NCBI GenBank assembly: GCA_038858525.1
Contig: JAWCFL010000010.1
Location: 1-32,000, forward strand
Direction of reading: 5' to 3'
From: Candidatus Jordarchaeales archaeon
GTDB lineage: Archaea > Asgardarchaeota > Jordiarchaeia > Jordiarchaeales > Freyrarchaeaceae
Length of the DNA: 32,000 nt
Both the position numbers and the translations under genes were made by a program. Below the pieces are notes generated by a model. It had not been told where the DNA came from. It saw only the letters and a list, made by a program, of their open reading frames with translations, and made no database searches. Below, in pieces: positions 3,981-13,281 of this stretch (its first letter is position 1; each line of letters opens with the position of its first letter).

Positions 3981-4000
3981 ATAAATAAAAAGTTTTCGGG
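3981..4000 (-). promoter_or_regulatory. BRE + TATA promoter of alba
   Basis: Minus strand CCCGAAAAC-TTTTTATTTAT, purine-rich BRE abutting a TATA box. Confidence 0.55.
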
Positions 4001-4127
4001 TTCAGTTAGATCATCAATAATGCCCTATCTCTTAGACAGCCCTTTAATCGTGTAAAAAATGGGAGATATATTTTTTATTGTGTATGGTTTTTAAGAAATC
4101 TGAAGTTGATTAACGAGGGAAAGGAAG

Positions 4128-6080
4128 ATGATCAGGGAGTTTTATGTGTTTCAGAGGTCAGGAAACCCGGTGTTCCATAAAAGTTATGGTGAAAAAAGGG
4201 TTGATGAAGCTCTTCTTTCAGGATTCCTTGCGGCCGTCTTCTCCTTTGCGAAGGAGATAGGGCATGGTGAAATACAAAGCATGGTGATGAAGGATACTGT
4301 CTTTGTATATGAGGTAGCGGGGGATCTCATATTTGCTGTTGCCGTAGACATAGATGACGATGAAAATGCAGCGAGAAGTTTTCTTTCTCAAGCTATTTCA
4401 CTTTTCTCTGATTTTTACAAGGGTAGAGAGGAACAAGCAATCGACTTTTTCGGCGAAATACTGGGGCCGTTAATTATCGAGTATAACTCTCGGCTTATGG
4501 TTAAGGAAGTTTTCTGCACCCCTTTCCTGATTTCAGACGAGGAGGAAAGCGAAGAAGTTTCTCTTGCCGTGGCTTTCTTAATGTTGGAAAAGATGAAAGG
4601 TCAGAGGATCGGTTTACTTAAGAGGAAGAGCGTGTATATCCGTTCTGTTGCTAAGATCCTTTGGCCATTCTGGATTGTTCCTGCGGAGGCAGGAAGTTGC
4701 TTGATAGTGGATGGCTTGTTTAGGGAGCCAATTACAATAAAGTGTTTTTCACCTCCGGATTTGAAGGAAGAGGATCTAATAAGTTCGAAAAGCGACCCCT
4801 TGAAAGCGATCGATAAAATCGCCCGGACTTTGAAGGAGAAGGGCACTTATGAGACTTTTTCGATACCTGGCCTAGTTGGGTACGAATATGTTCAAGAGTT
4901 GACTTCGTTTTTCTCTTATGCACGAACCTCTAAGGTTAAGGATGCGGCCATTTTAAGTCCTATCATTGGTGAGGCTGAAGTTAACGGTGTGAAGGAGAAG
5001 TTTCTAGAGGTACTTAAGGCCGTTAAAGAAAACGCTGAAAAATTGAAAATAATAAGTGAGAAGGTAGTTGAGACGGCGGAGACGCATATTAAGAGTTTAG
5101 AAGAAGAAAAATTAAGGATAGAAAACGAATACCTAGAGAAAATTGAGAAGCTTAAGCAGGAAATCAGTGAAGAAAAGAGGAAGGCTGAGAAGGAAAAGAG
5201 CCAGATAAGGAGGGAGATAGGAGAATGGGCTTGCCAAATGGCAGGAAGAGATGTTGAGAACGCAAAGGAGGGTATGATTTCTCTTTCATCCTTCATGACG
5301 AGCGTCATCAATTTCGTTTCTAGTTCGCTTAAAGCAAGTGAGGGAGAGGAGGACAAATTAGGCCTTTTGGAAGAGTTTGTTTCGTTATTAGAGAAGTTAA
5401 AGTCCGAAATGAAAAATGTAAGTGAGGACATAAGACGTGTCGAGAAAGCAGTGCGTTTAGTTATTAATGAAGCACAGAAAAAGTACCAAGTCGCTGAGCA
5501 ACAAATCGAGAAAAAAATTTTGAACATGGAAAAAAGGGTGGATGACGTTAAGAGAGAAATGGAGGTGCAACTTTCATCAATAAGTAGGGTTAAGGAGAAG
5601 TATCGTGAAAAATTGAAGGGTATTTATAGTTACTTGGAAAAACACTTAAAAAGCCATGAGGCAGATATAGCTACGCTAACTGGATCCATGACAAAAACAT
5701 TTAATTTTGAAGGGGCATGCGTCATTTACTTGGTTGCTTACATAGCTGAGTTAAACGAGAACGGAAACACACAAACGATGATAATACCACCTGTGAACCT
5801 CACCAAGAAGCTCGAGGAAAAAGTGAAAATGGATGATGTGGCAAGCAGGTTGATGATGAGCTTTTTGAAAAAGAGGTTTGAAGAGCATTTAAGGGAACGC
5901 TGGTTCGCCGAAGAAGTTAGGAGGATTCTTGATGAAATGAACCTTCTTAAGCAGAGGGAGCTAGAGCCAAAAATATATGATGGATTGAATTCCCTGCTTC
6001 AGAGAGAATTCATTACAAAGAAAGAGTTCTCCTTAATGAAAATGAGTATGATAGAGCTTTTCAGGGAGAAGCCTAAATAG
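4128..6080 (+). CDS. Longin-domain protein with long coiled coil (Asgard eukaryotic-signature type)
   Basis: Residues about 1-120 (MIREFYVFQRSGNPVFHKSY...DEALLSGFLAAVFSFAKEIGHGEIQSMVMKDTVFVY...LIFAVAVD) fit the longin pattern. About 285-510 is E/K-rich heptad coiled coil with globular segments on each side. No TM helix or signal peptide. Confidence 0.75.
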   Translation: MIREFYVFQRSGNPVFHKSYGEKRVDEALLSGFLAAVFSFAKEIGHGEIQSMVMKDTVFVYEVAGDLIFAVAVDIDDDENAARSFLSQAISLFSDFYKGREEQAIDFFGEILGPLIIEYNSRLMVKEVFCTPFLISDEEESEEVSLAVAFLMLEKMKGQRIGLLKRKSVYIRSVAKILWPFWIVPAEAGSCLIVDGLFREPITIKCFSPPDLKEEDLISSKSDPLKAIDKIARTLKEKGTYETFSIPGLVGYEYVQELTSFFSYARTSKVKDAAILSPIIGEAEVNGVKEKFLEVLKAVKENAEKLKIISEKVVETAETHIKSLEEEKLRIENEYLEKIEKLKQEISEEKRKAEKEKSQIRREIGEWACQMAGRDVENAKEGMISLSSFMTSVINFVSSSLKASEGEEDKLGLLEEFVSLLEKLKSEMKNVSEDIRRVEKAVRLVINEAQKKYQVAEQQIEKKILNMEKRVDDVKREMEVQLSSISRVKEKYREKLKGIYSYLEKHLKSHEADIATLTGSMTKTFNFEGACVIYLVAYIAELNENGNTQTMIIPPVNLTKKLEEKVKMDDVASRLMMSFLKKRFEEHLRERWFAEEVRRILDEMNLLKQRELEPKIYDGLNSLLQREFITKKEFSLMKMSMIELFREKPK

Positions 6081-6082
6081 CT

Positions 6083-7204
6083 TCATGCATTAATTTTTAT
6101 GATCTCGTATGTTGTTGTCCTTTGGGCGGGTATTCTACCGCAGTCTCTTATTATCCTTTCTATTTCGCTTGGGGGGAGGTATTCTCCACTAGTGGATCCC
6201 GCTATTCTTGATATGTTCTCTTCCATTAGGGTTCCACCGAAGTCGTTGGCGCCCACGTTTAAGCAGAACTGGGCAAACTTCACACCAAGCTTAACCCATG
6301 AAACCTGTATGTTCTTTATTAGGTCGCCTAGCATCAACCTAGAAACCGCGTGTACTTTAATGTCTTCCAGTCCAGTTGCTCCCGGCCTAGATAAACCTGT
6401 TTTGTACAAGTTTGTCTTCTCGTGGACGAAGCTTAGAGGAACGAACTCTGTGAATCCTCCTGTTGATCTTTGAATTCGCCTGAGAAGGTCTATGTGTATC
6501 GCTTTGTCTCTTTCGCTTTCAATGTGACCATACATCATTGTGCTTGAAGTAGGTATTCCAATCCTATGAGCGGATTTAATTATTCGCACCCATTCGGCAA
6601 CTTTAATTTTGCGAGGGCACACTACGCGCCTAACCCTATCAACGAGTATCTCGGCGGCTGTTCCCGGCATCGAGTTCAACCCATTTTCTTTAAACGCTTT
6701 AAGCACTTCTTCCACATTCATGCCGGAGTTGACTGAAGCGTGCTTCACCTCCATGGGGCTAAAGGCGTGAATATGTATGCTGGATGAAACTTCTCTAACG
6801 GCTCTCAAAATATCTAAATATGTTTCTAAGTCCGCGTCGGGATGCAAACCACCCTGTATGCAGACCTCCGTCGCGCCAAGCTTAACGGCTTCTAAAACCT
6901 TCTTTTTTAGAGTTTCTAGGGGAGTGACATATCCTTCAGGGGAGTTGGGTGGTCTGCTGAATGCACAAAAGAGACAGTCATTTATACAAATGTTGGTGAA
7001 GTTTATGTTCCTGTTAATGACATATGTTACAACGTCTCCCACTATACGGCGTCTTAGTTCGTCGGCGACGTGAATCAGGGCGAAGAGCTCTTCACCCGTA
7101 ACCTTAAAGAGAATTTCAGCTTCTTTAACTGTAATAAGATGGCCATCTAAGGCTCTATCAAGTATATAACTTACTTCGCCATCTATAACGTTTAGCAGGT
7201 TTAA
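6083..7204 (-). CDS. cofH: FO synthase subunit 2 (radical SAM)
   Basis: NRNINFTNICINDCLFCAF (CxxxCxxC), EVCIQGGLHP, MPGTAAEIL, NIQVSW, GANDFGGTLMEENIS. The ORF track starts at GTG 7042, but the frame stays open with CofH-like sequence (ILDRALDG...ADELRRRIVGD) up to the cofG stop. The start is therefore placed at 7204 and is non-canonical (see findings). Confidence 0.9.
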   Translation of the reverse strand, partial: LNLLNVIDGEVSYILDRALDGHLITVKEAEILFKVTGEELFALIHVADELRRRIVGDVVTYVINRNINFTNICINDCLFCAFSRPPNSPEGYVTPLETLKKKVLEAVKLGATEVCIQGGLHPDADLETYLDILRAVREVSSSIHIHAFSPMEVKHASVNSGMNVEEVLKAFKENGLNSMPGTAAEILVDRVRRVVCPRKIKVAEWVRIIKSAHRIGIPTSSTMMYGHIESERDKAIHIDLLRRIQRSTGGFTEFVPLSFVHEKTNLYKTGLSRPGATGLEDIKVHAVSRLMLGDLIKNIQVSWVKLGVKFAQFCLNVGANDFGGTLMEENISRIAGSTSGEYLPPSEIERIIRDCGRIPAQRTTTYEIIKINA

Positions 7205-12567: not shown

Positions 12568-13281
12568 ATGAATGCCGAGAAGGAGATGAAGAGGATTTTA
12601 GAGGGGCTTGTTGAGGGTGCAGGAATAAGAGGGGCAATCCTGACAACTAAGGAGGGGTTTTCAAGGATGAGTGCCGGCGAAGTTGATGAGAATGTCGCGC
12701 CTGTTATTGCATCATTATCATCCATGTCATCTCAAGTTCTTCATGGTTTCGCTAAGAAGGAACTGGATTACGTGTTAACAAGGTCTAAGGCGACGGTCGT
12801 GATTAGTGTTCCTGTCGGGACGCGGATGAATTTGGCAGTTTTCGTCGATAGGGATGCCGTGGAGCTTGAGGGAATAGAAACAGTAGTGTCCCGCGTTAAG
12901 GCAACGTCCATCCAGTTGGCGGCCATAGATGAAGTGACAAGTTACGAGGAGGGAAGCGTACTGTACATGGTTAAGAAAGAAGTTCCGGAAGCGTTCATGG
13001 CTGCGGTTTTGACTATTGAAGGCATGCCCCTAGACGTTTACCCTTCCTTAGATTACGTGACATCAGCAGGAGTGCTGAGCGCTGTCTCTATGGTTTGTGA
13101 TAAAATTGTTAAGGAGGATGAAAACGAGTACTCCGTTATAGTGGGTGGAGACGCTATTATCATAGTATATAAGCTCCCGCAGAGTAGAGTGCTGGCAGTA
13201 GGAATAAGTAAAGAGAAAAAGGTGGGGGAGTATCTCATAAAAATCAGAAAAATAGTGGATAGCGTGGAGAGGACTGTTTAA
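12568..13281 (+). CDS. Tandem roadblock/LC7 (LAMTOR2-like) domain protein
   Basis: Two roughly 115-aa units: ILEGLVEGAGIRGAILTTKEGF...ASLSSMSSQV...LAVFV and EAFMAAVLTIEGMPL...SAVSMVCDKI...VLAVGIS, each with roadblock alpha-beta-beta-alpha-beta-beta-beta-alpha order. Confidence 0.8.
   Translation: MNAEKEMKRILEGLVEGAGIRGAILTTKEGFSRMSAGEVDENVAPVIASLSSMSSQVLHGFAKKELDYVLTRSKATVVISVPVGTRMNLAVFVDRDAVELEGIETVVSRVKATSIQLAAIDEVTSYEEGSVLYMVKKEVPEAFMAAVLTIEGMPLDVYPSLDYVTSAGVLSAVSMVCDKIVKEDENEYSVIVGGDAIIIVYKLPQSRVLAVGISKEKKVGEYLIKIRKIVDSVERTV

Follow-up and report, generated by a model that had tools for sequence, protein, structure and literature searches.

What does a longin domain control when it is joined to a long coiled-coil hairpin? 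The question is raised by an open reading frame (ORF) on the plus strand, at positions 4128-6080 of the stretch of DNA analysed here, a window of 32,000 nucleotides from a Candidatus Jordarchaeales archaeon (Asgardarchaeota; contig JAWCFL010000010.1). The frame reads without interruption from ATG to TAA over 650 codons, and the gene is real, conserved and syntenic in Jordarchaeia. To our knowledge, Asgard archaea are rich in longin, roadblock and small-GTPase genes, and the outputs of these switches are almost wholly unknown. Because a longin is here covalently tied to a defined and conserved module, the window protein offers a candidate for an output of Asgard longin and GTPase signalling, and a concrete one, since the module is confidently predicted to fold and the protein can be expressed and tested. 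We propose, tentatively and at a little under an even chance, that a longin input of the type most often wired to Arf/Rag-like GTPases in this lineage controls or localises an elongated scaffold.

The longin head and the hairpin body

On profile evidence, we accept residues 1-125 as a longin domain of the guanine nucleotide exchange factor (GEF)-platform kind (MON1/FUZ/TRAPP-Bet5), and the original prediction of a longin-like N-terminus was thereby borne out. A profile built from 70 related heads matched TRAPP Bet5 (3.4e-5) and MON1 (5.2e-5) in the PDB, and more weakly TRAPPC1, VAMP7, Sec22b, AP sigma and MglB. Among the 70 aligned heads, 27 matched the Pfam family Fuz_longin_1 (best 3.9e-9), nine matched Clat_adaptor_s and six matched Longin; a full-length homolog of 684 amino acids (P0006) reached 30.1 bits to Fuz_longin_1, above the Pfam cut-off. 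The longin topology is beta2-alpha1-beta3-alpha2, and an N-terminal helix would mark a roadblock domain. In the full-length AlphaFold2 (AF2) model, in which the head is of low confidence (predicted local distance difference test, pLDDT, 41-53), strands at residues 4-8 and 14-19 are followed by a helix at 27-43, strands at 51-55, 58-63 and 66-73, and helices at 79-97 and 104-121, i.e. bb-a-bbb-a-a, the longin order. With the first longin of MON1/FUZ/HPS1 (PF19036) and with TRAPP Bet5/TRAPPC1 the head shares profile similarity over about 95 residues and, in so far as the low-confidence model shows it, this order of elements; it differs from them in being fused to a coiled-coil module and has no known partner longin or TRAPP core. 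Longins of the GTPase-activating class (FLCN/NPRL2/SMCR8) carry a GP motif before or at strand 2 and a catalytic arginine finger (PMC12290439). The loop before strand 2 of the window head instead reads S-G-N-P (G12, P14), in which G12 is at least 90% conserved across the 70 heads and the proline is confined to close relatives.

The rest of the protein was modelled by AF2 from an alignment of 88 bodies alone, covering residues 126-650 (525 residues), with a mean pLDDT of 91.9 and a predicted template modelling score (pTM) of 0.79. An alignment that combined full-length, headless and head-only proteins was kept out of the folding, because MAFFT had placed the headless N-termini onto the head. 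In protein numbering, the body model comprises an alpha/beta region at 127-275, two long helical arms, two long strands at 531-553 and five C-terminal helices at 568-646. The arms, of about 115-120 residues each and roughly 17 nm long by arithmetic, pair intramolecularly in the model as an antiparallel coiled-coil hairpin (residues 282-403 and 407-519), which is what had been suspected from a long glutamate- and lysine-rich heptad region; hydrophobic residues occupy 0.57-0.67 of the a and d positions there against 0.31-0.36 overall, in three of the four segments. The two strings that had drawn attention to globular segments on either side of the hairpin are indeed present, KILWPFWIVP...LIVDGL at residues 176-197 and VIYLVAYIAEL...IIPP at 532-556, and the proposal that these segments join at the hairpin base fits the model, in which the chain comes back to the point from which the hairpin sets out and both segments exceed a pLDDT of 90.

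Conservation in the 88-sequence alignment peaks in the base and in the post-hairpin strands, is high in the C-terminal domain and is lowest at the hairpin tip. The conserved positions are P132, F133, K176, W179, P180, W182, D195-G196-L197 and P210 in the base, Y538 and P554-P555 in the strands, and N605, L607, G619-L620 and L623 in the C-terminal domain. These columns are mostly proline, glycine, tryptophan, tyrosine and aliphatic residues, a scan of the whole protein found neither [AG]x4GK[ST] nor GK[ST], and no membrane-like segment was seen (the 19-residue stretch of highest hydropathy, at 1.68, falls within the longin strands and contains charged residues). For these reasons the conserved set does not look catalytic, and the protein appears to be soluble and non-enzymatic.

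We searched for known relatives of the body at several levels. Its sequence profile returned only compositional coiled-coil matches from the PDB, e.g. apolipoproteins, and the best PDB matches of the N-base and C-terminal profiles had E-values of 0.05 and 0.7. When segments from the base and the C-terminal domain, 87 in all, were scanned against Pfam at E up to 0.1, the only recurrence was that of zinc ribbons appended in two members; NCBIfam yielded coiled-coil noise only, and feature searches of the ESM Atlas gave no usable result. By hhalign, neither the base nor the C-terminal domain resembled the longin-head profile (probability at most 1.4%), which gives no sign that the base is a second longin. 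Fold searches with the whole 525-residue model returned the helical arms of SMC proteins, Smc5/6, chemoreceptors and BAR domains, all rated as noise by the tools themselves; as such matches filled the lists, the base was effectively left out of these searches. The original impression that no characterised protein has this architecture has therefore held in Pfam, in NCBIfam, in PDB sequence and fold searches and in the literature searched, where a description of a longin-hairpin protein was not found.

The fold-search matches, among them SMC arm fragments, Smc5/6 arms and chemoreceptor cytoplasmic domains, would be expected of a divergent coiled-coil protein of the SMC/Rad50 or chemoreceptor type. 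Such proteins likewise have a long antiparallel intramolecular coiled coil that reunites N- and C-proximal segments. The window protein, by contrast, lacks ABC ATPase motifs, HAMP and the MCP signalling domain, it has no Pfam match to SMC_N, AAA_23, MCPsignal or HAMP, and the structural matches cover the helices alone, at the level of noise. With the Walker, Pfam and membrane tests all negative, the full architecture matches neither an SMC-type nor a methyl-accepting-type family, and we regard this explanation as scarcely credible and already largely refuted. Nor was a Synaptobrevin/SNARE match in Pfam or a C-terminal hydrophobic segment found. Membership of the SMC, MCP and SNARE types was rejected in each case for want of a defining feature.

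The body as an archaeal family of its own

Far from being peculiar to the window protein, the body forms an autonomous family of about 540 amino acids, to which a longin head has been added in some Asgard lineages. When 1.84 billion representatives were searched with the profile, 463 matches in three classes were returned, and the comparison of homologs with and without the head, which had been suggested at the outset, could be made on 15 full-length proteins, 70 bodies without a head and 79 head-only proteins. The 70 headless clusters, about 540 amino acids long, align to profile positions from about 130 to about 645 and start at an LPF motif that corresponds to residues 131-133 of the 650-residue protein. 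They are homologous to it over residues of about 130-650, with profile E-values to 1e-33 and beyond, and share its predicted fold and its motifs (LPF...PxW...DGL...YxPxY...PP...NLL...GL); what sets them apart is the missing longin head and, in the Bathyarchaeia branch, co-encoding with a P-loop protein. Named headless examples are hypothetical proteins of Candidatus Bathyarchaeia (P0015) and Hermodarchaeota (P0014), of which the latter, a seemingly headless row in the tree described below, is a partial record. The full headed form was found in Candidatus Jordarchaeum, other Jordarchaeia, an Odinarchaeota metagenome-assembled genome (MAG) and Candidatus Hermodarchaeum.

Within the phylum of the window genome, the body was found in 255 of 301 genomes (about 85%), including 79 of the 90 of high quality, in open frames of about 650-736 amino acids when headed or about 520-570 when headless. 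It is also present in Bathyarchaeia and Thermoproteota, and models of ESM Atlas archaeal clusters from Bathyarchaeota, Promethearchaeota, Thermoproteota and Thorarchaeota superpose on body residues 2-522 with template modelling (TM) scores of 0.57-0.69. A family of this breadth is notable alone, yet it lacks a Pfam model, a solved sequence relative and any annotation. The window genome itself carries a headless paralog of 499 amino acids (contig 31:16589-18058, or L024:8578-10077; E 1.4e-26 to the body profile), and a closed genome of the same order likewise has a headless second copy. In a quick maximum-likelihood tree the bodies fall into two halves (Shimodaira-Hasegawa-like approximate likelihood ratio test, 99). 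One half contains all the sequences taken from genomes of the window's phylum, both headed and headless; those of the other, the Bathyarchaeia example included, are all headless. The headed forms cluster in the Asgard half, and the tree needs at least two changes of state.

Two of the superposing Atlas clusters raise the question of whether the body family is an accessory of an Asgard ESCRT or ubiquitin sorting system. One is a Thorarchaeota cluster of 745 amino acids (TM 0.62 by query), in which 12% of members contain EAP30 (ESCRT-II), and another similar cluster carries zinc ribbons; moreover, Asgard-specific proteins of the Znr-PH-CC-SB type and longin-Vps28-C fusions have been described (PMC10936438). 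Against this, no ESCRT domain was detected in the window protein or in the relatives aligned with it, the neighbourhood contains no ESCRT genes, the C-terminal extension of P0151 gave no ESCRT match in the PDB, and the Bathyarchaeia members of the family have a different partner. We consider this explanation highly improbable.

The partner in Bathyarchaeia is a P-loop protein. At two distant Bathyarchaeia-type loci a headless gene is followed, 40-48 nucleotides downstream on the same strand, by a gene of a P-loop family. This family comprises more than 1,300 proteins at 57-61% identity, named mostly as Bathyarchaeia and each labelled 'hypothetical', and it has no relatives in the PDB, Pfam or NCBIfam. 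There, the unannotated body is thus paired with an equally unannotated and very conserved protein. Together with the recurrence of this gene pair and the high conservation of the P-loop family, the placing of a coiled-coil hairpin on a globular base, which recalls SMC-like architectures, could indicate that the body is a subunit of an NTPase-driven machine, whose ATPase would in Jordarchaeia be replaced or encoded elsewhere and in which the longin head would be regulatory. It should be noted, however, that the P-loop family was not found in the window genome or in 10 relatives of its order, that its gene is adjacent to a body gene at none of the Asgard loci examined, and that the body itself has no nucleotide-binding motif. 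The headless paralog of the window genome sits near a contig end, and the truncated ORF downstream of it is unrelated to the Bathyarchaeia partner. An NTPase-driven machine is, in our judgement, distinctly unlikely for the window protein; the P-loop pairing may indicate the ancestral role of the body, with no direct bearing on the headed form.

Longin heads, small GTPases and the proposed mechanism

Longin-GTPase fusions in Asgard archaea have already been described (Tran et al. 2024, PMC10933270), as have longins fused to Vps28-C and to adaptin appendage domains (PMC10936438). The window head belongs to the same paralog family as the former. The window genome holds 14 matches to the longin-head profile, and two of these are encoded together with an Arf-like GTPase as single open frames, of 316 and 301 amino acids; a stand-alone GTPase of the same type is also encoded. 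The difference lies in the C-terminal partner, which in the window protein is the hairpin body and not an Arf/Rag-like GTPase. The C-terminal parts of the head-only proteins include Arf-family GTPase, prenyltransferase toroid, winged-helix, Prok-RING and TackOD1 domains, and the Arf-like GTPase is the commonest fusion partner seen for the head family. On our reading, the heads act as interchangeable N-terminal input domains within a large Asgard paralog family. The ORF at 12568-13281 of the window gave no match to the head profile at E up to 0.001 and hence falls outside this family.

In other genomes of the phylum the same Arf-like GTPase often occurs in frames of 285-320 amino acids and also in frames of 600-668. 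The latter, considered as fusions of a GTPase to the body, were rejected as such: they are multi-longin proteins with a GTPase and have no body match. Four of them, of 640-663 amino acids, combine two to four longin-like repeats with the Arf-like GTPase (L085:1146-3113, L088:1212-3194, L089:1737-3659 and L087:1615-3606).

The mechanism that we propose treats the protein as two modules, a longin input domain (1-125) and an ancient archaeal effector module (126-650). The head would bind a small Arf/Rag-like GTPase or a GTPase-longin partner, and this binding would place or switch the body. The body, in turn, would be an elongated scaffold or adaptor that works through its conserved base and basic C-terminal domain, and the hairpin would provide spacing, oligomerisation or both. 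We infer the binding to a GTPase, the function as a scaffold and the state of oligomerisation; for GTPase recruitment and a role as tether or filament, as raised by the original prediction, we argue by analogy, from the roles of longins elsewhere and from the paralogous heads fused to Arf-like GTPases.

Several points weigh against this mechanism. Nothing found in the analysis links the window head directly to a GTPase; when the head and the stand-alone 162-residue GTPase were modelled as a complex, the score was 0.00, which is no verdict and is counted neither for nor against binding. The window head itself scores 23.7 bits to Fuz_longin_1 (E 5.9e-5), under the Pfam cut-off of 26.1 bits, and its structure is modelled at low confidence only, because the alignment behind the full-length model, which folded poorly except for the hairpin, held only five sequences. 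Across the Asgard loci examined, no operon partner of the longin-hairpin gene was seen, and the conservation of its housekeeping neighbours reflects general synteny. The co-encoding with a P-loop protein in Bathyarchaeia hints that the ancestral role of the body was unrelated to small GTPases. Lastly, some longins act without GTPases, e.g. those of SNAREs and of AP sigma subunits.

This last point leads to an explanation in which the head is independent of GTPases and serves as an intramolecular regulator or as a dimerisation or adaptor domain that controls hairpin assembly or partner binding. In longin R-SNAREs (Ykt6, Sec22b and VAMP7) the longin domain folds back on the coiled coil. The layout of the window protein, an N-terminal longin followed by a coiled-coil former, is like theirs, the head profile matches the longins of VAMP7 and Sec22b, if weakly, as well as AP sigma, six heads match Pfam Longin, and the head paralogs are fused to many non-GTPase outputs. 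The window protein differs from the R-SNAREs, however, in that a SNARE motif, a membrane segment and a lipid-anchor motif are missing and in that its coiled coil is an intramolecular hairpin of 2 x 115-120 residues on a globular base. Furthermore, the best matches of the head are the GEF-type longins Bet5 and MON1, and its family is most commonly fused to an Arf-like GTPase. We find a GTPase-independent head somewhat unlikely and retain, as the tentative proposal, a GTPase-wired longin that controls or localises a scaffold.

It was already known that longin domains are expanded in Asgard archaea and that they occur fused to diverse modules; new are the identity of the partner, a widespread and undescribed archaeal hairpin family, and the occurrence of the fused form in several Asgard classes. 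A more far-reaching possibility is that the body is an undescribed structural machine of the TACK and Asgard archaea, which became a direct small-GTPase effector through the capture of a longin in several Asgard classes. We see this as a long shot; if true, it would provide a prokaryotic counterpart, and possibly a forerunner, of the coiled-coil tethers and scaffolds that GTPases recruit in the membrane traffic of eukaryotes.

Gene, locus and features

The start codon of the longin-hairpin gene is supported by its homologs, which begin with the same N-terminus (MIREFYVF...). Four close full-length homologs, at 45-73% identity, come from MAGs labelled Jordarchaeales and Freyarchaeota. In other Jordarchaeia-type MAGs the gene order is shared: Nre, adenylosuccinate lyase, Alba (divergent) and the longin-hairpin gene are followed by convergent cofH- and cofG-like radical SAM genes, pheA and PcrB. 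As these neighbours are housekeeping genes on other strands, the gene appears to be monocistronic and its context to be uninformative on function. The window DNA recurs in hot-spring metagenomes of several independent studies, at a word share of 0.9-1.0, and the gene is therefore no assembly artefact. The coordinates of the features are collected in the table.

Table. Coordinates of the longin-hairpin gene, its parts and related genes (window positions unless a contig or locus is named)
Feature	Coordinates	Strand	Basis or remark
Whole ORF	4128..6080	+	650 codons plus TAA; full-length orthologs 45-73% identity; conserved synteny
GAGGG, likely ribosome-binding site	4115..4119	+	8 nt before ATG; inferred from sequence reading
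Longin domain, residues 1-125	4128..4502	+	Pfam Fuz_longin_1 plus head-profile matches; secondary-structure order at low pLDDT
N-proximal alpha/beta base, residues 126-282	4503..4973	+	AF2 pLDDT mostly 86-98; alignment column conservation
Coiled-coil arm 1, residues 282-403	4971..5336	+	AF2 helix, body residues 157-278; heptad enrichment
Hairpin tip, residues 404-406	5337..5345	+	Variable, gapped in homologs
Coiled-coil arm 2, residues 407-519, antiparallel to arm 1	5346..5684	+	AF2 helix, body residues 282-394
Post-hairpin strands, residues 520-560, back to base	5685..5807	+	AF2 strands, body residues 406-419 and 422-428; pLDDT 95-98
Five-helix C-terminal domain, residues 561-650	5808..6077	+	Basic, pI 9.3; AF2 helices, body residues 443-521
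Longin + Arf-like GTPase fusion	contig 46: 9407-10246	-	Head-profile match in window genome
Longin + Arf-like GTPase fusion	contig 17: 38134-38973		Head-profile match in window genome
Stand-alone Arf-like GTPase, 162 amino acids	contig 2: 103883-104368		Same GTPase type as in the fusions
P-loop protein, 580-596 amino acids	L004:7701-9491 and L005:4518-6263	same as headless gene	Walker A GEPGTGKS

A few smaller observations concern the gene and its surroundings. A 59.8-kb contig from another hot-spring study has an insertion of AA at 4124, where it lengthens the spacing from the putative ribosome-binding site to the ATG, and five substitutions within 3999-6400, and represents a strain variant. 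Two contigs of a sediment metatranscriptome library (X15) cover 4461-4734 and 5917-6244 at an identity of at least 99%, the second of them running past the stop codon and reaching the 3' end of the convergent cofH-like gene; they give a weak hint that the longin-hairpin gene is transcribed, with carry-over of DNA as another possible source. The cofH-like radical SAM ORF (6083-7042, minus strand) measures 319 amino acids from its first GTG, and because its syntenic orthologs are longer, at 370-372 amino acids, its translation probably begins further upstream, either from a non-standard codon or beyond a point where the sequences differ.

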